A stretch of DNA of 62,995 nucleotides, the filler included, from Choristocarpus tenellus KU-1152 (lineage: Eukaryota; Protista; Phaeophyceae), in NCBI GenBank assembly GCA_964200185.2. It is 10 parts of 10 records of this genome, joined end to end, with 100 filler letters (N's around TTAATTAATTAA, not from the genome) between each part and the next. Parts side by side here need not be neighbours in the genome. Positions count along the whole stretch, not along the records: positions 38,821 to 52,647 come from CAXNAD020001356.1; 9 more parts are not named here. The stretch is one strand, 5' to 3'. The first letter of the stretch is position 1, and each line of letters opens with the position of its first letter. The notes below the pieces were generated by a model. It saw only the letters and a list, made by a program, of their open reading frames with translations. It was not told the origin of the DNA and ran no database searches. Both the position numbers and the translations under genes were made by a program. This document shows positions 30,225 to 60,169 of this stretch, piece by piece.

Positions 30225-31757
30225 GTTCGTAGATGGAGTGCCTCTGATACACAAAGACACCACCGGTGGATTATGTAATAGGATGGAGAGCCAGTGACAG
30301 ATATATTATTTGTACTGACTCATAGTGTCCATTGATTTTTATGTCATATTCAAGATACACTTTCTATACTTAAAACAAGTTAATAAGTGAACCATAGTGA
30401 ATTAGTGTGGACGATTGCAAACCCCACACTCTAGAAATAATAATGATAGGTTAGGCTCGTCTTACCCACCAAATCAGTCAAAGGAATTGAGACCACAAGC
30501 CCCCTTGTATTATTAACATTGCACATCTACACCAAGCTATTCGCCGTCTTTCATCAAAGCACCAAAGCCGCGGGTCCAGCGTAGGATACTTCAGCAGTTA
30601 CCTCCTCACCCTGGCTGAGGTGCAAGAAGGAATAGGTTTGAGACACGGGAAGGCAGTAGTACGACATAGTAGTAAAATAGGAAATAGGAAATAGATTAAC
30701 ATTTTTCACTTTTGTGACAACTCTTACTTCCTTAAGGATTTTTCAGATATGTGAATAGTTTTCAGTAGTAGTAGTAGTTTTTCCTCTGGCACATCTACAA
30801 GATGTCAGACAGCATAATAACATAATAGGAGAAAGAGTAATGAAAAGGTTGCATCCCTTGCTTTATGATCTCTTCATTACCTGGTTCTTCTTCTATACCT
30901 CAAAATGATTGATTTCAAGGTTCAAACCAATTCAAGATTTTCTTGGGATTTATCCTCTTCAAAATCTTGTAACGTGGTACAAGTAGCTTCGCCCTCTCTG
31001 CCAATCCTGGTTTTTTTCACTGGAACGCCACAACAGTTATACAACAATGTATATATATTAAATGAAAGTGTATGACAAGAGCCTTTGAAGGTTTGTATCC
31101 AAGAATGTCCAGGCTTCAGGGAACGGGAGCTATGCCCCGATCAAAGCATGGAAAAAAAACGGGGGGGAATATCCCCGGGGCAATTTTGAAGGTCACGACT
31201 TCAAAACGGACAAAAATGAAGTTGTTGGCTGAACTCTTGCAAAAACCTGATCCGGGGTACGTTGCTGCCCAAGTTTGGGCAGTGTGGCGATACCAAGAAC
31301 AAAAGAAATATTTCCGAACATTTTTTTTACGCCTTTTGCAGACTTCCTGTGAGCACACACATACATGTGTGACTTACATAGCATCATGTGTTCCTAGATA
31401 GTGCTGCTGATACACTAGACATCACCGGTGGATTATGTAATAGGATGGAGAGCCAGTGACAGATGTATTATATGTACTGACTCATAGTGTCCATTGATTT
31501 TTATGTCGTGTTCAAGATACACTTTCTATACATAAAACAAGTTTTAAAGTGAATCATAGTGAATTAGTGTGGACGATTGCAAACCCCACACCATAGAAAT
31601 GACAATGATAGTTCAGGCTTGTCTCGCCCACCTATTCAGTCAACGGAATTGAGACCACAAGCCCCTTGTAATATTAACATTACATATCTACATCAAGCTA
31701 TTCATTGTCTTTCATCAAAGCACCAAGGTCGCGGGTCCAGTATGGAATATTTCAACA
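30225..31757 (+). repeat. Diverged ~370-bp direct duplication (30225-30596 and ~31390-31757)
   Basis: Shared long words such as CACCGGTGGATTATGTAATAGGATGGAGAGCCAGTGACAGAT and GTCTTTCATCAAAGCACCAA. Confidence 0.9.
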
Positions 31758-42166: not shown

Positions 42167-45100
42167 ATGTCTGTCATTGGGGTGGACCTCGGAAATGACA
42201 CCTGCGTCATCGGTATTGCAGCTCGAGGTGGTATTGATATCATCCTTAATGAAAACTCCAACAGGAAGAACCCTTGTTTGGTGAGAGGACTTGAATATCT
42301 TGCCGCATCATGTAAATAAACACCTCTGCCTCTTACTCATATGCTGCTGCTGTTGGCATGAATTGGCTGATAAGGTGTTTTTGGTATTGTTGTATGGTGG
42401 TCAAGGAAAGATCCTTGACTGTGGGGACACTTGTGGTACGGTTTTGTGAGGTAGTTTTGTACCTAATGATCTATTGAAATGAAGTAACTGCTCTTCTTGT
42501 TTCTGTTCAGTCTATCTCCATTAAAACAAGTCCGTTGGGGAGATGTATTAATCTTGCAGGAAGGGACTGTTCTGGGGTTTCCACTTTGGATTAGTGACAG
42601 GCATGTTCAAGTTGGTTGAAAGTACTTTCATCTAATCACTTGAAGTTGTGTTTTATAAATTGGGGTTGGACTATGGAGAAGTAGATCTAGGCAGCTTGTG
42701 GATCTTGGGTTTTCCATGGCAACCTCAGCACTTGATTCTGAATCTCCTTGGATGGTTGTTGTAGTGGGATGTAGTAGTAATATCCACAAAGCTAGAGATT
42801 TGAAAGTCAGGTGATGAATGTGACCCTCCCCACCTTCTCCCTCTGTTCACCTGTGCGGTCTGTGGATCTCGAGAATTGTTAGTTCCATCCAAGTCTCTTC
42901 ATATGTTACACGTATTTTATGAAGTAGGCTTGAAATAGTGAATGCACAGGAGCTTAGGGAGAGATAGGAATGTTACAAGTGAAAGTATTGCTAAACAAGT
43001 TGTTGGTTTGAGAAACATGTTTTGTCAGTTACTTGAAGGTAGTCCTGTTTTTTGTTATGATTGCACATTTACTTTGATAGAGTTTTGTGCATTTTTCTTT
43101 ATCGGAATGCAATGCCTCCGTTGTCGTCTCATCAACTATTGGACATTGTGGGTGACGTAAACCTGCTGGGTTTGGGGTCATTAACATTGATGTTCAGGTT
43201 TCGTTCCAAGCAAAGGAAAGGCTGATGGGGGAAGCAGCCCTGAGTATTGCTAGGAGCAACTTTAAAAACACTGTACGAGAAGTAAAACGCCTTGTGGGGA
43301 GGAAATGGTCTGAGCCTGACCTTCAGGTGGACTGTGCTCGCCTCCCCTACAAAACCATGTGGGTCTACATCTTTTCCTCACCTCCCTATCAGCGTTTTTG
43401 TAACCCCTTTACTGCTATTATTGTACTTACGTCATGTAATGCCTCATTTTTATTCTCTTTTATTAGTTTAGTAGCTCCATGGTCAGCTGTTCAGTGTAGG
43501 CTGTAGATTTTTCTTGGTAGGCAGTAAACCTTTTCTGTAGAATATCTCCACCTCCAATGACCCTAATATACAGAGAACAGTAAGGTTTCCTTTTCAAATT
43601 TTAGCTGCTGAAATGTGAGAAATGACTGTTCTCTTTCCATTTCAAGCATGCTTCTGCTTCAGGGATTTGGTAGTGAAGATCGTTTATATATCACTTCTCA
43701 TTTCTGCAGAGGATGAACATCCAGTGAAAATGTACTAGTGTTTCTCTTGTATGAGTTATTATTTACCATGTCTATGCTTTCGTCTTACATGGCATATCCG
43801 AAGCCTCTCACCATCGCCACTTTTCCACCTCCAGCATCCATATTTATATAAGTTGCCCAAATCAGCATACTATTTTCTGGGTAACCACCTAGCTACAATA
43901 TATTTACACGGTATCTGATTCACCCACTAGTCTATCTCTTTAAAATGCCTTCTTTTTCACAATCTACCATCTACTCCCCAGTGCACACTTCGACCCCTCC
44001 TCATGAAGAGACAGCTCAGTACACATGCATAGATAAACATACACCCATCCAATGTGTGACGCTTGGTTGTTTGGCTATGCACACCAGGGTCTGTTGACTA
44101 TAGGACCGTAGCAACAATCTCTCTCTTCTGCTTTGAATGTGTCATTTTTCAGTGTTTATTATCCATTTAATTTTACAGTGAATGAAATAAAGGTAATATT
44201 TCTTCTCTATCGTCCATACTGACCATATTTCGTGTTATACTTGTTGCTGCTGATTCTCTTTTTGGAACTACACTTGTGACCATTGATAAAGGGAGCACCC
44301 TGAATCTGGGGGTGTGGCCATCAAAGTGATGTACGATGATGAGGAGAAGATCTTTACTCCAGAGCAGATCATTGCTATGATGCTCACAAAGGTAAAAAGG
44401 CCGGACCGTGGTAATCTCAGTTGTGTTGCCTGCCTGCATATTCTCACTTGGCTATTTCCATCCTTGTTATCCTAAATATAGACCAATGTAATGATTATAG
44501 AGGGCAGCCCCCAGTTGACACTGCTTTCTTGTCTTCTCGTCTCTTTGTTTCAAGTACATACAGAGTAAATATTACAGTAGGGACTTCCTAGTGAATGGAA
44601 ATTCATGATAAGGCTGCTCGACACCCCCCCCATGAACCTGTATATTTGCTGAGAAGACTGAAAACGTTTTAAAATTCAACTTGATGCTTTCCTAGGCAAT
44701 TGATGCAGGGCTGTGCAACACGCGAAGATGTTCCAATGGGTTCTTTTGTTCTTTTCTTGTTTTTCAACAAGACAATCGCTATTTGATCCATTTTGTGTGC
44801 TAATCCTCCCACTTGCCTCATACTTTGCCACCCCTCGTGTTAACTTGTCCTTTGTTTTCATAATGTACACCTCTTTTTGTATTTTTTTATTAGTGTAAGA
44901 CGAGACAACTTTTAGTTGATGCTAAATCGGCTGGGAAAACTTACATAATTCGATTGAAGTGTTGGTTCACAAAGCTACGACGTGTTCAGGTCACCAAGTG
45001 GTGCGTAGTGCTTCAAGGCTAATATCACTCAACGGATTGAAAAGGAGACTTGAAATTTTGTCTTGCAACTCTGGTACTCCTTCTCATATATTGTGTTTAA

Positions 45101-48100
45101 GATGAGCAATTGCTGATTTGTTTCTTGTTCTAAGGAAGGCCGAAGAATTTGTGTCTGAGGGGTTGGCCCATGGATCTTCAAACTTTTCATGCGCAAAGCG
45201 TCCGTGGGTCTCGGGAAGATTCAAAGCTGTGAAGTGTTGTGGTTTGTGGGTATCGAAACCTTGTGATGAATGTAATAGGTTGTGATGAATGTAATAGGTT
45301 GTCCGCATGGCTCCGTGACTTCTGAGATGTTGGTTGCAATAGTTCTGCTTGTATTGCGGTTGGAAAAACAACTTAATTTATTGTCTTTTTTCAGTTGAGT
45401 TATTCAGACTTTTCAATTGATTGAACTGAGGTCAATGTTTCTGTTGCAGTGCACAAAACTTTCTTTTAATTGCATGTTTATTTTTTGTTCACCTTGATCT
45501 TCCATGTAATATGATTTTTTTCTAAACTTCTTTTCAATGCTCAGTTGGTGGCCATTGCCAAGGCGGCAAACGCTAACATTGATGTTGCTGACACTGTGCT
45601 GGCCATCCCTGGGTGGTACACTGATTCCATGAGGCAAGCTATGCTGGTGAGTGGACATCTCTTGCATTCTGTAGTTTTGGATTGTGGGAACCGGTGCCTA
45701 CTTTGCACGGAATGGGGTGGGAGGAAACTGCTTCCTTCTTATAATAGTTGACAGATGGGGACTGTTTCCTTGTCATATTTGGTTTAATTCTTAGTGATAT
45801 ATGTTTGCATGGGCCAAAACAAAAAGGAGCGCTTCTCTTCTTAGTAAGGCCTTACTTCCAAAGCTACTCCTCTAGAAGCTCAAACCTTTCCTGGTTGCTG
45901 TGGTTTAGTTAGATAAATGCTACAGCCCTTTTTGCAATATTTACATTTTTTGCAAGTCCTGTGCATGTGTTTTGATGGTATCCAAAATACTTTCCTTGTT
46001 TTCTTTGCTCAGATCTAAAAAATGGAATCTTTGATGTAAGCAGTGAATAGATAGTGATCCATTGTTTGTGTTTGTGCCAGAAAGTGGTGGTAAGGGTTGA
46101 TCTCACGTAGTATTATTACTATTCTTGTATGCAACATGAATTGTAGGCATCGCTGTGTAAATTGCAAAAACAGTTGAAGCTAGAATGAGGTGTGCTTTGG
46201 TCTAAAATATGGGAATGTTGGAAAAGTAAAGGTTCTGATAGTGGCGATGGCCACTGATTTACACTGTGGTTACAAGCAATTTGTAGGAATGTTGATGGCA
46301 GGGTGAACTGAGGCTTAACTTAGGAAAGCACAGCTTAGTATTTTCAGTAATAAATAAAGTCATTGCCACAACTAATTTCACCAACGAATCACGAGCACAC
46401 ACACCCAACCTGGCAGGATGCTTGCACTGTTGGTGGGGTGAACTGCCTTCGTCTTATGCATGAGCACACAGCAACTGCCCTGGCGTATGGTATCTACAAG
46501 TCTGCAAAGGGTCTTTTTCACGCGACGGTGAGTTGTCTTGGTTAAGAAAAACTGCTTTGTTTTAGCTAATTTTTTTTGTAAGCACTCTACATGTAGATGT
46601 TACTGAGAATACGATTGTATTTCATCGGGTGCAAATCATATTATTTATCTTGCATGGCTGTTGCCTCTTTGTGTTTAGATAGAAGTGTGGCTGTGTTTGT
46701 CTCTGTAACTGATTTTTCGCAAATGGGATCTTGTACTGGCAAGCTTTTTATCACCACAACGATAGTTACTTCTTCAGGTAGTGAACACTTCAAGAATTAC
46801 TTAAGAGTACAATGTGCACTTCACAAATGGCATGGTTCTGCATGAAAGAAGAGTGTACAATTGAGTGTATATCTTGACCTCTCTCTTATCAACAAATGCA
46901 GTGGATAGAACATTTTTGCCCATATTCTCCTATGTTTTGTTAAACCTGCCGCTTCCTATCTTAATCAGTGTTAAAAGCTCACTACAGTACATTCAAGTGC
47001 TTGCTTCAAAATATTATCTTTAGAAGAAATGCACCCTTCAGGTGTGCAACACAGTTTCTATTTAAGACTTTGGAGGGGGGAGTAAAGTAGTCAGATCCTT
47101 GGTTTTCATTTTCTGCATCCCGATTTGCTTTGAAGTCGTATAATTAGAGAGTGGCACAATTTTGTGCCATTTTTATGATCCTCAACAGATTGTAAGTGGA
47201 TTGTTTTGTCCAAGTGATTATTATTTTAACAATCACATGCAGTCACCCTTTTACTACGTGGTTGTCTTCACTGTCGGGCAAGGTTAAGGATCAACCCCAG
47301 CGTACAGGTTGCAAAAATGACAGATGATATCCTTGAGGGAGGACCGGAGGTCAACAGGTGCAATAAAGTAGTACATCATGTCTACACCAAGATATTATAT
47401 ATATATGGAATGCATTAGGTGTATTTTGCTCTTTTCACCGAAATGGTTGTGTCTATTATCCAGGTTTGGAACCTGCTGACCTGTGCTGGTCCTAAAACCA
47501 TACCTGAGTTGTAAAGATGGAATTGTGTTTTAGATGGAATGGTTGTCATGCTCTTGGTTTGTACCAAGTAGAAAGAAAATAAATTTGCTAACTCTTTTCA
47601 AAATGCTTTCGCTTGCCAACTCCTCCTAAGTTTCCATTGCCCTGCTGCTGATACATGTTTAACGTTTGTGGGGTATGCAGGAGCCAGAACATGTGTTGTT
47701 CTTGGACCTGGGACACTCGAGCTTTAGCGCTTGTGTGGTGAAGTTTATACAGGTGTGTTTCGCACATCATAGCTGTCACTATGTGTACCGTGGTGAAAAA
47801 CAATCCCTGCTTATTTGATATGGTCTCTCTATTGGAATATTACCATAGTTGATGAATATGTGCTTGCAGTGTATATTTTTTTATGTAACACCCAGCAAAA
47901 GGATGTGTGATTGTGAGTTAAGTTGCCCTTTAGGTTACCAACAGTTTTAACCTGTCTTCACGCTCACACGCACCATGTTCCTCTTGTTCACCCTACAGGG
48001 CTCTCTCTCAGTGAAGTCAGCGGCATTTGACCGCAGTCTGGGAGGCCGGGACATGGATTGGGCGATTGTGGTCAAATGTGCAAATGATTTTAAAGCAAAG

Positions 48101-50304
48101 ACCGGAAAGGTAACGATGTATCCATGGTTGTTTGGTGTTTGGAGTACTGGTGCATGCTACTGTATTAGTGACATTGAGCCCGTGGTCGGGAATTTTGTGC
48201 CTATTTAATATAAGAACATTTCATTGTGGTGCTTATAGAGACTAGCCCTTAGAAAGTTCAATTGTCAATTTCCTTGGCAGTTGATATTTTCGCGGCTTCC
48301 ATTGGTGGTAACACATAGTCTTCGCCCTGCCCATTCCTCAAACCGTGACTTTGCCTACCAGGATGTGTTTTCCCAACCAAAAGCCTTGCTTAAGCTGATG
48401 GATGCAGCGGAGAAGGCGAAAAAGATCCTGTCTCCTATTGGGGTCAAGGACTCTGCTGTGAATATTGAATGCCTTTACGATGAGGTGAGCATGATGATAC
48501 AACGCTTTGTAGTAGTTGGGGATCCATCAAGACAAAATCTGATTCGGTACTTGCCTGTAAGTAAGGTATGGTACTATTTGCTATCATGGGGAATTGTACA
48601 GAATCTTCTGGTACTGTCCTGCGGCGTATGGTACTATACGCTCTATTACAGCCCTTGCCTAACTTTTCATAGAGAAGATGCACGATCTAGAAGTTGCACC
48701 TGCTCTTTGGTTCAGGTTCTTTCAGGCTTTGTTTAGTTTTGAATTGCATGATTATGTTAAGATATGACCAACCTTGATGACATCTCCACATCTCTTGTGC
48801 TTTTGAAGATGATCTCTAGTATTGTATTCAATTCATTGATGAAAGCCACAACAAGCCATTGCCTGTTCTCGATAGATGTTGAAGGATAGAATATCTCTAT
48901 TCTCAACAATAAAAAGCACACAAATCCTGCTTTGAATCCTCCCCTTAAACCTCTTGTCACCCCCATCCCCCTTCCCGAACGTTCTTTTCTTCTAAATTCC
49001 TATTCTAGCTTGACTACATTGGACGTTTGGAGCGGGGGGAGTTTGAGGATTTGATCAGGCCTCTAGTGGAGCGCATGAAGGCACCTGTTACACAGGCACT
49101 TGAAGAGGCAGGGGTTACCAAGGAACAGCTCTCTGCAGTTGAGATTGTTGGTGGTGCTACAAGGTAGGGAAGGGAGCATGGACCAAGTGCTTATACTTGT
49201 GCAGCATACTTCATGCGCAGTGGTGTAATACACAACTCATTGGGTGTTTCAACACACAGGAGCCCCCACTATCAATGCTCATCCCTACCATGACTCTTTC
49301 AGGTCATGTTCTGTTGACTCCTGCTGTAGTTGCAGGGAGGGTAACACAATAGGTCCCAACCTTTCTTGCCACTGTGATCGCAACTTGTGTATGTCCAGCA
49401 ATGACCTTTCAACACAAAAATGTGCAGGGTACCGCTTGTGAAGGACTTCCTTGCAACTCTCTTGGGCCGTGATAAGTCAGCCATTAACTTTGGTCTCAGC
49501 TGCACTCTTAATGCCGATGAAAGCGTAGCGCGTGGTTGCGCCCTACAATGTGCGATGCTCTCGAGCAGGTTGGTGGAGTGAGGTGTTTCTCTTGGTTGTT
49601 TTTTTCAGCTAAATGTGTATGTTATGTGTAACTCTTACGCACTGTGGTCGATCTTGTTTATCTATCGTGACACCTTGAAAAATGTTTTTCAGTGTTGTGG
49701 AATGTGCCTTCCCCCCCACCTATACATTATGTCCCAGTTTGATTTCTCTTGTAATGCCTTGAAACCCAGCTTGTGATGTACGTGTCCCTCCTTCTCTAAG
49801 ATATTTAAACTCTCAACTGGGTGTACCGTGCTTAGTTTTTTTGAGCTCAATACCTGCTACAGATTTGTATATTTGCTTCACTATGTGCACAGTAACATGG
49901 AGGGTGAACCACACCATAGATGTATCACCTGAAAAATATTTTATGGCTCAGAGGTGATAGGTACGTAAGAGTGTTTGCATTGAACAAAACATTTTTGTAA
50001 GGTACTTGCTCATAACTTGAAGCTCAAGGTGTGAATCAATCATCTTTCTGAAGTAACACCCTGCAATGGTGCCCAGTTTGATGTTGCTTGTGTTCTTTGT
50101 TAATGGAATATGCACTTCGATCCTGGTTCTAGTAGCCCTCACACTCTTTCACACATAAGACTGAAAGATATGACGATATTCTTTCTTATTATGAACAACA
50201 CGCATAAAGATTCAAGGTGAAAGAGTTTTCCATTGTGGAGGCGGTGCCCTACCCCATTCAGCTAGGCTGGGAGAATGATGATGGGGTACAGGCGGTGGAA
50301 GGAG
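42167..50304 (+). CDS. HSP110: Hsp110/HSPA4/Sse1-type Hsp70-family chaperone, coding exons 1-11 (whole nucleotide-binding domain); 3' part beyond the contig break
   Basis: Phase-consistent GT-AG exons: 42167-42280, 43198-43358, 44292-44391, 45545-45646, 46417-46527, 47681-47752, 47999-48109, 48362-48484, 49009-49163, 49428-49568, 50210-50304. Motifs [66 protein letters not shown] and [20 protein letters not shown] are typical of the Hsp110 subfamily. Confidence 0.96.
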
Positions 50305-50619
50305 GTGAGAGTATGGAATATATCTTCACTAGCTGAAAGATTGATTGATCTAAACATTTGTTATTATGTAGCTCTGAAGCTTAGACCTTGAAATGAACAA
50401 CTACTATTGCCAATGTAGTTGTTTCACCTACATTGAAACTGGTTGGGTATACTTGTAGGCCTGTGGTTAAGTGTACCTCATTTTATCCACAGCCTATGGG
50501 TATTCACCCTCACCCTTAGAGTGCCTTGTCGAAGGATTGGTAACTGTGGGTTGTGACTTGGTCAAATCTCACTGTAGGGATGTTTTGTGGTATGTGCAAG
50601 GAGGGGGGGAGTGTAGGTA

Positions 50620-50756
50620 TGTGGAAGTGATGACATGAGGCACAGGTGTGTGAGGCAGTCTGTTTGTCACGGGTACTTGAACCCACTCGTGAGCACGTGT
50701 CTGCACTGCTCCAAAGCTGCGGCCAAAACATTAGAGCCAGCTGTCTGATCCTTACA
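50620..50756 (+). ncRNA. Intronic box C/D snoRNA-like RNA, copy 1
   Basis: Box C GTGATGA 50627-50633, box D CTGA 50745-50748, terminal stem TGTGGA/TCCTTACA; sense to the Hsp110 host. Confidence 0.8.
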
Positions 50757-51239
50757 TTGTATTGCTTCATTTTTTTTCACTAGTATTTCCCCAGACTCAG
50801 TGTAACTGCTCAGTACAGGTTCCTAGGTAGTGATATCTGGTTTGGTTTATCATAGAATATCTCACATATATAGAAGACTATCTTATTTTTGTGAAATGCA
50901 TGCATTCATATCTTTTGTTGTATTTTCACAACTATTTTTAGGATTGCGATTGATTACTCCATTGGAATATACTTGTCCTTGTATTTATTTGTACAAGATA
51001 CAATACTTCAAATATTTTATCGTGTTCATTGGTTGGTAGTCAACTAATCCAGTAGTCATTTCTGTTAACCCCTATTTGTTGAGTTTATATAAAAAGAACT
51101 CTTTAGGAATTTCCAAGTTCATTCTGCATCTCGCCAATGATATGCCTAGTTTTCAGTAAGTTTTCGGTGTGTGTTTGTGTGTGTGTGTGACAAGAGAAGT
51201 GAAGTGAGCTTTAGTTTTGTCAATAGTGTGGTCAATTAT

Positions 51240-51378
51240 TGTGGAGGAAGTGATGACAAAAGGCAGGTGTGTGAAGCGACACATTTGTCACGGGTACTTG
51301 AACCCACTCGTGAACATGTGTCTGCAGTGCTCTGAAGTCGCGGTCAAAAGATAAAGAGCCAGCTGTCTGATCCCTACA
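51240..51378 (+). ncRNA. Intronic box C/D snoRNA-like RNA, copy 2
   Basis: Box C 51250-51256, box D 51367-51370, terminal stem TGTGGAGGA/TCCCTACA. Confidence 0.8.
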
Positions 51379-51620
51379 TGCTGTTGCTTTATATTTCAGC
51401 ACTGTTATTATTGGTGATGTTCTGCTGTTAAAAATATAATTGTAATTGAGATTGTGCTCTTCTGTGTTGTAGGGAAGTATAATGCTCTTTATGTACTCGT
51501 ATCCATTTACTGAGTATGAATATACCATTGATCAGGTTTTTATGGTGTTTGCTTTCAACACAAGGGCTCATATATAGCCCGTTGTTGGTGTTTTGGAATT
51601 GTTACTGTGCTATGCTAGTG

Positions 51621-51760
51621 TGAGATGGAAGTGATGACAAAAGGCATATGCATGTGAGGCGGTATGTTTGTCGTGAGTACTTGAACCCACTCGTGAGCAC
51701 ATGATCGCACTGCCTTAAAGCCGCAGCTGATATTCAGAGCTAGCTGTCTGATCCTTCTCA
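51621..51760 (+). ncRNA. Intronic box C/D snoRNA-like RNA, copy 3
   Basis: Box C 51631-51637, box D 51748-51751, terminal stem TGAGATGGA/TCCTTCTCA. Confidence 0.8.
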
Positions 51761-52090
51761 AGGATGTTGTGTTCTAGTCTACCGGTGGTTGTAACTTTGT
51801 TGAAAATAGGGGTGCATGAGGAACTCTGTAATCCGATATCTATATATAAAAGATTTTGCAGTGTTTTTGCATGTGTGTTTTTCTGCTGTACTCAACAAAA
51901 AGAGCATTAATAGATCGGTGCGGTGTTGGCAATCCCTGTACTTGTTTTGTTTGATGTACCTCCGTGGTGTAAATAGCTGTGTTAAGGGGCCGCAGGAAAG
52001 CAGTTTGTATAGTTGGAAGATACATAAGTGTTATTGACCGTATGTCAACTTGCCCAAAGGTTAAGGGGTGGTGCTATTTTGTTTGTTGTG

Positions 52091-52229
52091 AGGTGGAAGT
52101 GATGATGCAAGGCACAAATGTTTGAGGCAGCATGTTTGTCATGGGTAATTGAACCCACTCGTGAGCACATGCTTGCACTGATCTTATGCCGCAAGCAAAG
52201 AATTTATGGCTTGCAGTCTTATCCAACCT
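52091..52229 (+). ncRNA. Intronic box C/D snoRNA-like RNA, copy 4 (box D degenerate, CTTA)
   Basis: Box C 52099-52105, terminal stem AGGTGGA/TCCAACCT, central hairpin retained. Confidence 0.6.
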
Positions 52230-52764
52230 TTTTTCACTCTCTCCCTACCCCCTTTTTAAACCTTACAAGCCCTACGATACAAGTAACCTAGTTGCTACTT
52301 TTCCAAAAGCTCTTTCTCCAGCAGCAGTCTGGTTCCCTAGTACCATGCCTTATCCATGCCATGTGCTTGAGTGTACCGCGCTGTGGATTTGATGTTTCCG
52401 CTTTTGCCGGTGTTCTTGAGGGAACCTTTTATGCACTTGTTGTTTGCTGTGCAATGTATTTGATTTCATCATAGCAGAGATTGAATGTGTATTTGGGTGT
52501 ATCTTGGGGGTTGTTCTGTACTGCTGTTGTTTTATAATTAGTTGTTGAACAGGCAATACATTAGTTTGGTGTGTTGGGTCAAAGTATCTGGGGGGGGGGG
52601 GGGGGGGGGGGGGGCCGTTTTTACCCTTTTTTTGATTTTTCCTTTTTNNNNNNNNNNNNNNNNNNNNNNNNNNNNNNNNNNNNNNNNNNNNTTAATTAAT
52701 TAANNNNNNNNNNNNNNNNNNNNNNNNNNNNNNNNNNNNNNNNNNNNATGTATATATTATTATT

Positions 52765-52804: not shown

Positions 52805-53839
52805 CTGTGTGAGGCAGGGTCCAATCAGTCGTGGGGGGGGGGTGTCCAGAATCACCAGTTGTGTCATGGTTGGGTGCTTCCAGCAAACCCAAAGCTCCCT
52901 CGGTTATCAAATCTTAGGAAACGTTTAGATGGGGTCTCAGATCCGACGGTGATATCACATCTTTGTGAATGTTCAACAGTAAGTGGTCTGAGGGTCCTCA
53001 AACTTTCTGTGTTTGATATTGGTGGGAAAGTCACCAATGACAAAGAAATGTGCTTGCGATGCACTTGTGTGCACGTGCGGATGTGTATCTGGACTGAGAT
53101 CAGCTCTGAAAGGGACCTGTCCGTCAAAATGGTATGATTTGCTGTATTGTCCTACTGAATTGTACGCACTATATACCACTCATGAAGCGCTGAATGTACC
53201 CCTTTGTCATTGAGCTTGTTTGATATATATCTCAATGTTATGGCCCTTCTTTGGTGTGAACAGCTCCATGTTTGCCTTGCAGGATGAAAAAAACTCATCT
53301 GTCTTAGAGGGAGGTGTTGTTTGAGTATTTTTTTGCCCCTGTGACTGCCTAGTAGTAAAGAAGCTTTCTTGTGGCACATTTGGAGGCCGATTTCGCACCT
53401 AAATGAAAGAACGTTTGTTTCCAATTCTGAAGCCTCAGCCAGCCAGCTAAGAGGGGTCAGCTTCATTTCAGGCATGGGAAATGGGGTCCCAGGCAGAAGA
53501 TGTTAGAAACCCCTTCAGTGCTGGAAAGGGACCTAAAAAAGATCTCCAAGATAGATTGACTCGCAGTTGCAATTCACGTATATTCAATATATGTTGAATA
53601 TAAATATATTGAATCTATTTATTTGATCCCCCTCAGAGCAATATCTAGAAGTTGAAACTTTATTGGAGTTATTTTGTTTGTTCGCTCAGTGTTTGTTCGA
53701 TTTTGATTGATACTGTAATAGGCGATTGATATTGACCCCTTTCCCAAAAGCGCATCTGCTACCATTTGTAATCCTAAAGTCTTATCTGGTTATCGTTTGT
53801 CATGTTGCTGTTTCTTCTACTTCATTGTGCGCTTTGTTT

Positions 53840-56581: not shown

Positions 56582-56830
56582 TCATACTTGAATGTCTTGT
56601 ACATCCTCTTGTTGAGTGAAGTCCTGTGCCACCAACCTGGCCTTGACTAAACGCACAATCTTTCCAGACCATATACTACATCCATCACATAAACGAACAA
56701 AGATCTCTTCACTAATGTCTGCTCGGATAAAAGCTTGCTTCACATCCCAATGCTTTAATTCCCAATCCTTGTCTGCAGCTAATGCTAAAACCATTTTCAA
56801 GACGCAGGGGACGGTGTTGGTAAGGCAATT
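56582..56830 (-). mobile_element. Ty1/copia reverse transcriptase relic (degenerate, rearranged)
   Basis: LKMVLALAADKDWELKHWDVKQAFIRADISEEIFVRL and KARLVAQDFTQ are copia RT motifs. No YVDD, LTRs or intact ORF. Confidence 0.85.
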
Positions 56831-57440
56831 GTGCATTTGCACATAACTAAGTCTCCTCGCTAGGCTCATCCTCAATCGACCTTATCTTCTTCACTACCTT
56901 GTCCATCAGCATAATATGAAGGGTGAGATTATACGAGTAGGCAAATAAAGAGAATTAACTTGGACCACACAATTGCTCTTTCTGTAATCCCTTTAGGAGC
57001 AAAATGATTCCTAAGTGCCTCAAACGCTTCAGACGGACAATCATGGCTGTCAGCTATTTTTGTGCAAGTTCACCTAAACACGTCATCAGAGCTGCCATAG
57101 GCATGCTGGCTTCTTGGGCTTCTCTCTTAGTCCATCTCGCTGCATCAAACTTAACACAGTTCACTCTTATGTGGTGCTTGGTCAAAGAACATCCTTCCGT
57201 CCACCCATAGAAGCACACGTGAAAAAGTTTCTCTCGAAAGTTGGAAACCTTCCCCATCATTCATCACTGTTGTATATTGCAAACTTTGCAGGAAGTGGGA
57301 TGAGTCGGTGTCGGCCCTCTCCTACAGTCCTCGTACCGTGTACGGTTCTGCTAACTGCCTCCTTGTCTTCATCCTCAGAGTCGGACTCAACTTTCTCTTC
57401 ACCATCTTCAACAGCTGTGATTGGTGTCGTTCCTTTGTAC

Positions 57441-59225
57441 TCAGGTGACTTGATGAGCCATGTTTCGAACTATATATCCTAAGTATCAGTTCCACATCGC
57501 TTGGATTAATCCAAAACCCATGTTTGACTGTCACTACCTCCCTAAATATACGACCTATCAGTGGAGATTTGATTCGCAACGTTTTCAACTGCACGTACTA
57601 AGTATTAATTGCACATCGCTTGGATGCATCCAAAACCGTTGCTTGACCGTTACTACCACCCTACATTCCTCACATAGCAGTGGTGACTTGAGGGGCAACT
57701 TTCGAACCATATATACCAAGTATCAGCTACCCATCGTTTGTATGTATCCATAACTGTTGTTTAACCGTTTCGACCGACCCCACTCACCATATACCAGTGG
57801 TGACTTTAGGAGCAACAGTTGAACTATATATCCCAAGTATAGGTTACACGCTGCTTGCATGGATGTAAAATTATTAACTATGTATCTGTTGCACATCGCT
57901 TAGATACATCCAAAACTGTTGTTCAACCGTTACTACGGCCCAACATTCACCACATACTAGTGATGACTTGAGGGTCAAATTTTTAAATCTATATACTGTT
58001 GTGTTAAGCATCAGTTACAGGTCGACCTATCAGTTACTCCAGTCCTCCATTCACCACATACCAATAATGACTTGATGGACAACGTTTACAACTATATATC
58101 CTAAGTATCGGTTACACATCGCTTGATTGTGTCGAAAACTGAGGTTTGATCGTTACTACCGCCCAAACCTCACCACATACCAATAGTGACTTGTCGGGCA
58201 TCATTTTGAACTCATACATAAGATATAAGTTACACATCGCTTGGACCTTTTAAAAAATGTTGTTTGATCGTTACTACCGACCTGGATCCCGCACATGCCA
58301 ATGGTGACTTAAGGGGAAACATTTTGGACTGTATATCCATCCAAGCGATGCGTAACCTATACTTCAGATGTATAGTTTTAAAAATTGTACTCAGGTCACA
58401 ACTGTTATGTGGTCGGTGTAGGGCGATAGTAATGTCACACACCAGTTTTATATCCATCCAAGCGATATGTAAAAGATATTTGGAATATTTCAATCAAAAC
58501 GTCGCCCGTCAAATCTTCACCGCTATGTTGTGAATGTAGGGCGAAAGAAACGGTCAAACAACAGTTTTGGATACACCCAAGCAATGTGTCCCTGATGCTT
58601 TTAAGATATCTAGTTCAAAGTGTTGCCCTTCAAGTAACCAGTGGTATACGGTGAGTGTAGGACGGTAGTAACAACCAAACAAAAGTATTGGATGCATCTC
58701 AACGATGTGTATCTGATACTTAGGATATAAAGTTCAAAAGGTTGGCCATCAAGTCACTACTGGTATGTGACAAGCGTTGGGTGCTAGTAACAGTCAAACA
58801 ACAGTTCTGATGTATCCCAGCGATATGTATCCTATACTTAGGAAATATTGTTCAGAACGTTGCTTTCCAAGTCGCCTCCGGTAAGTGGTGAGTGTCTTGC
58901 TGGAATAATTGTCAGGCAGCAGCTTTGGATACATCCAAGCGATGTGCAACGGATACTTAATGTGTCTTGTTCAAAATGTTCCCCTCTCAAATCACCACTG
59001 GTATTTGGTGAGTGCATGGCGTCAGTAATTGTCAAACAACAGTCTGGGATACATCCAAGCGACGTGTAACTGAACTTAGATTATAGATTTAAAGTGTTGA
59101 CTCTCAAGTCTCCACCATATTTATGTTGGCGAAGAGTCGTAGAAAGAGGTAAACAGCAGTTTGCGATGTGTAACTAACTGATAGTTAGGACATATAGATC
59201 AAAATATTGCCCCGCAAGTCTCCAC
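57441..59225. repeat. ~120-bp tandem repeat arranged as two head-to-head inverted arrays
   Basis: About 8 forward units (GGTGACTTG...AAGTATCAGTTACACATCGCTTGGAT...) up to ~58335, then about 8 reverse-complement units (ATCCAAGCGATGTG...ATACTT...CAAGTCAC). Confidence 0.9.
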
Positions 59226-60169
59226 ATTTTGCGAAGGGGAATCGTGTGAGGCTCATAACCTGTTGAAACCTGAATCAAATGCATCGTACATGTAGGTAAA
59301 ATGCGTAGACTATTANNNNNNNNNNNNNNNNNNNNNNNNNNNNNNNNNNNNNNNNNNNNTTAATTAATTAANNNNNNNNNNNNNNNNNNNNNNNNNNNNN
59401 NNNNNNNNNNNNNNNAATTTAAATTATATTTTCTTTTTTTACCCCCCAAAGGACACCCCGGTGGAACCCCCCCCCCCCCCCCCCCCAGATACTTTAGGTC
59501 TGAGCAACTACAGTTCACTGAATATCCACGAGAGGCAGGGGGAGCAATAAGAGGAAGAGACACTTAGCATAGAGAAATACGTATTAAGTGGAAGCACAGT
59601 TGTCAAAGTAGGACATCAGCCCAAGCAAGTATAGTAGCAAGAAAATTCCATGAGGACCGTGATTGCTTGCAGACTTCGTTGAAGGTGCTTTCTTGCATAG
59701 GACATGAGTTGTCATGCATGGAGCTCTAGAAGTAGAATGGCAAAGTTAAAATACTATATGACCATCCAACATCTCATGACATTCTTGGGTTGGGAACTGC
59801 ATAACAATAGTTGGGTTTCTCGCTTGAGCTCTACAGCACTTTATCTCTATCTTCAGCTCAATATCTATATTTTTGTTTTTATTTTCATTGAAGAATAAGT
59901 TTCTTCGTAGATATTGAGCTGAAGACTGAAGGTGTCAACCTACAGGAACCCTACCAACATCGTCTAATGAGCAGGACCGCCTGCACACTTCTCTGTTCTA
60001 TCAAGCCTTCCCAAGCATTCATCGTCCCACTTTCACCACGCCATGACCTATAAAAGCTCTGAAAAAATTATTTAACAGAGTGTGATCATAATTCACTCTA
60101 CTGTACACATTTGATCCCTTCAGCAACTCTATTTACACCAGTGATGATCCGTAACTTTATTTACAACAG

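Follow-up and report, generated by a model that had tools for sequence, protein, structure and literature searches.

In the parts of the literature available to us, U22 is called vertebrate- or mammal-specific and its mechanism undescribed, and the Y-domain of U14 is called essential in yeast and absent in vertebrates, with a published yeast loop consensus of AMGAACCY-AU that caps a stem of some 8 base pairs (bp). The U14 RNAs of S. cerevisiae and S. pombe carry UAC-GAACCCA in a stem-loop (supplementary alignment of PMC6315972). TtnuCD32 of Tetrahymena is described, in the accessible portions of PMC6315972, as abundant and likely essential, a knock-out not having been achieved; no guided methylation was found and none at the predicted sites, and upon half knock-down ITS1/5.8S/ITS2 intermediates accumulated and cleavages in the internal transcribed spacers (ITS) were affected. 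As far as the accessible text goes, its authors assign it to no family, report no homologue, conclude that it is not a U14 and name U22 only in passing (PMC6315972, PMC3273799). Here, we describe four copies of a box C/D RNA gene in a window of 62,995 nucleotides (nt), the whole stretch of DNA analyzed, from the brown alga Choristocarpus tenellus KU-1152 (GCA_964200185.2), with their boxes, their host intron, a covarying rod and a motif shared with U22, the yeast Y-domain and TtnuCD32. TtnuCD32 is the closest described RNA to the algal copies.

The copies (Table 1) are 128–130 nt long and are bounded by GGAA-GTGATGA and CTGA-TCC (CTTA-TCC in copy 4). GTGATGA and a GGA/TCC terminal stem are present in all four, and CTGA in three of four. 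Identity between copies is 72–85% in the bodies and 17–50% in the 60-nt flanks. The invariant 16-mer TTGAACCCACTCGTGA has the same letters at 50677, 51298, 51681 and 52149, and an invariant run of 16 columns among the 109 inner columns arose in 0.05% of 100000 column shuffles (P = 0.0005). Across the whole window, the count of the 10-mer of this motif with at most one mismatch was not above chance (8 seen, 6.55 expected). A search with a model of the four copies found no fifth copy in the window, where the host intron runs into a gap. A single contig of run X1 covers all four copies with two letter differences; this argues only against local mis-assembly, and X1 may be the source sample. Taken together, the four copies are a real feature and are predicted to be intron-encoded box C/D RNA genes. 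In copy 4, the terminal box D is lost (CTTA) and an internal CTGA (52178-52181) stands where copies 1–3 read CTGC or GTGC; closure there could give a shorter RNA of some 90 nt, similar in size to TtnuCD32. In run X2, the one contig concerned departs from the window sequence where copy 1 begins (50627), with 50636-50959 uncovered, and 11 nt are inserted at 51876; in that sample, copy 1 may be missing or disrupted.

In the consensus fold, the RNA forms a rod: a lower stem is followed by an internal loop and then by an apical stem of 7 bp, which is topped by the 12-nt loop UA(C/A)UU-GAACCCA; the first U and the last A of this loop are able to form one extra pair. The opposite strand of the apical stem varies at three of its seven pairs with standard or G-U pairing always kept, and GAACCC is unpaired with a probability of 0.7–1.0 in the folded arm of each copy, as it is in the consensus fold. 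For 19 pairs that we named, 97.4% of the 76 cells paired and four pairs changed on both sides; this level of pairing and covariation was reached in 17 of 500 shuffles, and slid controls paired at 29–55%. The covariation support that four paralogues give to the rod is modest. Whole-copy folding z-scores were unremarkable (+1.93, –0.83, +1.28 and –1.25), and in copies 1 and 3 the fold of minimum energy deviates from the consensus fold. A stem of at least 7 bp at the loop register was found at 247 of 61435 window positions and in none of 19 viral loci that match the loop by chance; the latter derive from pattern scans of viral contigs, which gave 74, 10 and 9 loci, all chance matches, and no 18S. 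An earlier note on this DNA had claimed that the motif is identical in the four copies, that the opposite stem strand varies, that GAACCC is exposed apically and that copies 1–3 end GCTGTCTGA, and on each of these points our analysis agrees with it.

All four copies are housed in a single intron of an Hsp70-family gene. In run X3, a deep contig connects the exon that ends at 49568 with the exon immediately before this intron and then leaves the window, which indicates that the host gene is spliced at 49568/50210; low-depth intron contigs of the same run are uninformative on a mature small RNA. One host exon shows 85–90% identity to proteins named from brown algae, its best named relatives, in keeping with the stramenopile setting given in the earlier note. 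Further matches of this exon are named heat shock protein 4, from which we infer the Hsp110-type subfamily label. A search of the PDB with one host exon gave no match, and the 3΄ end of the intron and the next host exon were not found within the window. Beyond the gap, an 85-residue open stretch (52880-53134, plus strand) has no Pfam match and is not the next host exon; therefore, the scaffold may join another gene after the gap at 52648. In vertebrates, U14 is encoded within an Hsp70-family intron.

We compared the apex of the algal copies with that of TtnuCD32. TtnuCD32 and TpnuCD32 of T. pyriformis have a 7-bp stem closing UACU-GAACCCA (PMC6315972 Fig. S5, by eye), and the algal copies have a 7-bp stem with UACUU-GAACCCA, that is, one extra U; the match was judged by eye and was met only after the motif had been fixed. 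Both RNAs are long C/D rods with internal loops that end GUCUGA, lack U14 domain B and belong to no Rfam family. They differ in length (98 nt for TtnuCD32 versus 128–130 nt) and in gene organization (an independently transcribed single gene versus four intronic copies), and TtnuCD32 has one U fewer in its loop and lacks both a 3΄ side hairpin and a clear terminal stem. GAACCCA is present in 4 of 30 rows of the PMC6315972 alignment (two yeast U14 and two CD32), once in the single Tetrahymena supplement file that gave a match (the catalogue holds 38 C/D RNAs), and in 1 of 164 mouse snoRNAs, namely Snord22.

With yeast U14 (RF00016), the algal RNA shares a stem-loop with GAACCCA, which in the Y-domain reads UAC-GAACCCA and whose GAACCC the earlier note had stated correctly, and a 3΄ UGUCUGA. 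Relative to the published yeast consensus, GAACCCA and the 7–8 bp stem match, whereas the UU before and the C after differ; plant Y-domain loops differ as well. Domain A is absent, since its letters are not in the copies and the longest 18S run is 7–8 nt with G-U allowed (five 18S), and for domain B the longest run anywhere in the copies is 5–7 nt (four 18S). Because both domains are absent, the algal RNA is not a U14, as the earlier note had stated for a standard U14.

With U22, the algal RNA shares a length of about 125 nt, an intronic C/D setting, UGAACCCACU, a long rod, a 3΄ UGUCUGA and a G-C pair closing on the motif. To set this likeness in context, we used a metagenome pattern scan that required box C, UGAACCCAC and UGUCUGA and returned 103 loci, of which 21 (23 elements) were chosen by eye as U22-like and the other 82 were kept as chance controls. 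The requirement for UGAACCCAC and UGUCUGA excludes TtnuCD32-type RNAs (GAACCCAG) and inflates both motifs among the matches, and under it no stramenopile relative was returned. When 15 U22-like loci and five controls were run against Rfam, two loci passed the SNORD22 threshold, one was found at E = 0.0003 and 12 were missed. The two that passed sit among SNORD29/30/31, and the hosts of the remaining loci are presumably animals. In one locus, from an unassigned eukaryote (L121, 1501-1625, minus strand), the intron that contains the U22-like RNA belongs to a poly(A)-binding-protein-like gene (read by eye), and L077, L079 and L091 each contain a pair of U22-like copies spaced by about 560 nt; the hosts of U22-like RNAs thus extend beyond the vertebrate cluster. 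Another locus, L151, was considered as a short-loop relative and rejected, as it sits in a bacterial-type reading frame (read by eye).

The UGAACCCAC core with a G-C closing pair on a stem of at least 6 bp is present in all four algal copies (7 bp), and the same closing pair on a 6–10 bp stem is present in 18 of 18 distinct U22-like elements, a count that is partly circular through their selection. Among controls, a stem of at least 6 bp at the motif was found in 10 of 120 (3 of 58 viral loci and 7 of 62 metagenome loci, the latter all from a single gene family). Box C lies 43–45 nt from the motif in the algal copies, compared with 46–64 nt in 17 U22-like RNAs. Moreover, the motif-free 5΄ arms of 7 of 23 U22-like elements, from two lineages, exceeded all 129 chance matches, in a comparison made after the likeness had already been noticed. 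The Rfam SNORD22 consensus and mouse Snord22 both contain UGAACCCACU and end CUGUCUGA, as the earlier note had stated, whereas its placing of the motif at a hairpin top did not hold: in the 17 aligned U22-like elements, GAACCCA is a 7-nt bulge between the long stem and a small apical hairpin. This hairpin of 4–5 bp is what makes GAACCCA a bulge, and the algal copies have five unpaired letters instead; accordingly, the spacer ahead of the motif is 13–16 nt in U22-like RNAs and 5 nt in the algal copies. The algal copies also differ from U22 in having no Rfam score, an unrelated 3΄ arm and another host gene.

These comparisons lead us to regard homology of the algal RNA with TtnuCD32 and U22, as one family, as probable. 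The fuller reading, in which it would be a stand-alone, stem-closed GAACCCA-loop processing snoRNA of this family whose loop pairs with pre-18S ribosomal RNA (rRNA) and does not guide methylation, has in our judgment an even chance of being right.

An ordinary 2΄-O-methylation guide, in which the GTGA ending the 16-mer would be box D΄ and TTGAACCCACTC the guide, or in which the guide would lie before box D, is very unlikely. An invariant stretch ending in NUGA does have the typical look of a D΄ guide, multi-copy intronic C/D RNAs are usually guides, and the tests covered six rRNA sequences of other eukaryotes. Nevertheless, the putative D΄ guide pairs over at most 8–9 nt in these six sequences, half of it is locked in a stem kept in all four copies, and no rRNA site of at least 11 nt was shared by all copies, including in two large-subunit sequences. 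The guide before box D likewise has no site common to the copies, whereas a neighboring C/D RNA of the window, used as a positive control, gives a 13-nt guide in three of three 18S. The lack of methylation at the predicted sites of TtnuCD32 points in the same direction.

Two 18S sites are complementary to the loop. The rRNA sequences belong to other eukaryotes and were taken from 23 contaminant contigs, not from this alga itself, a point to be counted with those weighed below. Site 1, the GGGUUCGA hairpin loop near nt 358–373 of 18S, carries GGGUUC and pairs over 8–10 nt with the algal copies and over 7–10 nt with ten U22-like elements. This pairing was found in 10 of 12 sequences and in 7 of 7 distinct records or organisms; in the two sequences with a C-to-U change, a G-U pair remains. 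When the site was folded alone, GGG lay in the hairpin loop in five of seven, and the C preceding GAACCC in yeast would pair with the same G of this site. We take the hairpin to be helix 12 of 18S, near the U14 sites and adjoining H9 and H11. Chimeras of yeast U14 have been reported at H9 and H11 of 18S, in a source available in part. Site 2, UGGGUUC near nt 1090–1100, forms 7 bp in seven of nine sequences, and 506 of 16384 7-mers are equally widely shared. Neither 18S site is established, and the pairing is not statistically significant; pairing of the loop with pre-18S rRNA, which we infer from these sites, is evenly poised. The 18S of one locus, L194, reads UGGGCCC at site 2 (near nt 1053) with site 1 intact, and its U22/CD32-type RNA would discriminate between the two targets. 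Three other candidates were set aside: a bulged pairing to 18S GAGUGUU, a segment that varies among the 18S compared; a match over 9 nt between copy 3 and 18S near nt 1160, which internal stems explain equally; and a transfer RNA T-arm on the minus strand, rejected by eye because its stem does not close.

A number of results weigh against the reading that we prefer. With respect to the target, 451 of 3000 shuffled loops (15%) found an equally conserved 8-nt 18S site, and 21.6% of 500 shuffles bound 18S as strongly. The failure of the 18S sites to beat shuffles is consistent with an alternative in which the RNA belongs to the TtnuCD32/U22 family and its loop binds a protein, for example as a box D΄-like NUGA element or as a helicase or assembly-factor site, or binds an rRNA or spacer site different from the two proposed above. 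In the accessible text, the authors of TtnuCD32 interpret its loop CUGA as box D΄; the letters before ACCCA are UUGA in the algal copies and CUGA, UUGA or GUGA in U22-like RNAs; among the four supplements of a chimeric eCLIP (enhanced crosslinking and immunoprecipitation) study, Snord22 appeared only in the annotation file; and DDX10 is reported, in a source available in part, to crosslink to U22. We nevertheless consider this alternative unlikely, given that the four copies have no conserved box C΄ partner and that yeast U14 has ACGA before ACCCA, letters that keep the pairing with the 18S site but make a poor D΄.

With respect to the family assignment, when the window, the cluster and one copy were run against Rfam, there was no relevant family and no SNORD22 or SNORD14 match even at E = 10, so that the check proposed in the earlier note was negative, and the copies did not reach the RF00099 threshold (at least 50 bits). 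The small apical hairpin AG(A/G)C..G(Y)U is present in 17 of 17 aligned U22-like RNAs and absent from the algal copies. A model of these 17 RNAs scored copies 1–3 at 16.6–18.7 bits (E = 0.08–0.21), with copy 4 unlisted, and chance motif matches reached 21.9 bits (100 of 103 loci scanned). With the four-copy model, 20 of 21 U22-like loci were under 11 bits; L085 alone reached 20.2 bits (E = 0.008), with the loop not used, and the rest of the 139 loci were at most 10.8. Model-level similarity to U22 was thus mostly not found. The 3΄ arms showed no similarity (mean 12.4 versus 13.7 for chance), and the terminal CTGTCTGA, which the earlier note had taken as a sign of U22, proved a weak one, being terminal in 4 of 164 mouse snoRNAs and in only 6 of 17 U22-like RNAs; in copies 1–3, its TGT can pair with the ACA ending and following box C. 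Scores within the chance range would also be expected of a brown-algal orphan C/D snoRNA without common descent, whose loop is alike either by chance or because it converged on the same site in rRNA. Only 11–12 letters and a stem are in common, the apical architecture is unlike U22 and the length is unlike TtnuCD32 (98 nt). Yet the motif occurs in three independently described processing RNAs and in no other RNA of the mouse and Tetrahymena tables searched, and a rough estimate puts the chance of meeting the loop and stem of TtnuCD32 among 38 RNAs at the order of 1e-5; an orphan origin therefore seems to us improbable.

The distribution of the loop and the published phenotype add further difficulties. 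Vertebrate, fly and plant U14 and TtnuCD25 lack GAACCCA (PMC6315972 supplement), no plant or fly carrier of the GAACCCA loop was found, no other stramenopile yielded a homologue, and the motif is absent from the readable diatom supplement files (8 of 11). In the accessible parts of PMC6315972, TtnuCD32 knock-down gave no robust large-rRNA defect, and the partner proposed by the authors is 26S, through a 15-of-16 nt pairing across box D. The different knock-down phenotype of TtnuCD32, together with the missing plant and fly carriers, argues against a single simple story. Function was tested by experiment for TtnuCD32, whereas the processing role of the algal RNA is a predicted one. The algal RNA is best described as one that cannot be filed as SNORD22 by Rfam criteria and that bridges U22 and TtnuCD32. 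The proposal in the earlier note, a U22 homologue or analogue or a stand-alone Y-domain RNA, is thus partly supported; the closest RNA, TtnuCD32, had not been named there.

Under the preferred reading of a processing snoRNA of the TtnuCD32/U22 family, the RNAs would, by analogy, be released from the spliced host intron and would assemble with C/D core proteins, and the GAACCCA loop would pair during maturation with the conserved 18S hairpin at about nt 358–373, the preferred partner, or with UGGGUUC near nt 1090–1100 as a second candidate. Yeasts would carry the loop on U14 as the Y-domain, and animals, ciliates and brown algae on a separate RNA; vertebrate U14 would lack a Y-domain because the loop sits on this separate RNA. 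In sources available in part, DDX10 of the mouse binds U22 and can be dispensed with in the release of U14, whereas yeast Dbp4 releases U14, a contrast that gives circumstantial support. Tentatively, and at somewhat less than even odds, U22, TtnuCD32, the yeast Y-domain and the algal RNA might form a single module that predates the divergence of opisthokonts and SAR (stramenopiles, alveolates and Rhizaria) and that kisses a conserved 18S hairpin loop in early small-subunit assembly.

The window contains other elements as well (Table 1). In one member of a second pair of box C/D-like repeats (30468-30563), a 13-nt guide before box D is complementary to 18S near nt 1105–1147, a region that we take to lie 3΄ of helix 27, in three of three 18S tested; the other member (31630-31724) has one change in the corresponding guide.

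Table 1. Features of the window, with positions counted along its whole length
Feature	Position	Strand	Remarks
Copy 1, predicted box C/D RNA gene	50623..50751	+	box C 50627-50633, box D 50745-50748, 3-bp terminal stem
Copy 2, predicted box C/D RNA gene	51246..51373	+	box C 51250-51256, box D 51367-51370
Copy 3, predicted box C/D RNA gene	51627..51754	+	box C 51631-51637, box D 51748-51751
Copy 4, predicted box C/D RNA gene	52095..52224	+	box C 52099-52105, degenerate box D CTTA 52218-52221
Apical 7-bp stem, copy 1	50667-50673 paired with 50686-50692 (feature 50667..50692)	+	consensus fold
12-nt loop UACUU-GAACCCA, copy 1	50674-50685	+	
Equivalent loops, copies 2–4	51295-51306, 51678-51689, 52146-52157	+	
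Host intron with all four copies	50305..52647	+	GT at 50305; runs into gap at 52648
Hsp70-family (putative Hsp110-type) host exon just before the snoRNA intron	50210..50304	+	
Upstream host-gene exons	42168..49568	+	5 of the 7 scanned pieces match Pfam HSP70
Second pair of box C/D-like repeats	30468-30563 and 31630-31724	–	no Rfam match at gathering level
Further C/D-like element	30799-30883	–	
Reverse-transcriptase-like remnant	56585-56881	–	reading frame seen by eye
Degenerate tandem repeat region, downstream of the reverse-transcriptase-like remnant	57450-59300		

In the parts available to us of PMC6315972, PMC3273799, PMC11863803, PMC4247016, PMC7277114, PMC4105744, PMC11603299, PMC4914119, PMC3511168, PMC8351944, PMC13736004, PMC9104705, PMC2978370, PMC6411936 and bioRxiv 10.1101/2024.10.08.617225, we found no link among these RNAs and no U22 outside animals; Samarsky 1996, Tycowski 1994, U14 crosslinking work, the Ectocarpus non-coding RNA catalogue, and the fungal U14 alignment figure of the preprint and further supplements may already list the RNA or name the target of the Y-loop. 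Rfam misses most of the U22-like loci that were run against it, and the full set of 21 widens the U22 family. One shared loop connects three separate open questions, those of U22, the Y-domain and TtnuCD32. If the preferred reading is true, U22 would not be vertebrate-specific, and U22, TtnuCD32 and the Y-domain would share one testable mechanism; if the four RNAs are indeed one module, U22 would gain the target that it has lacked since 1994.
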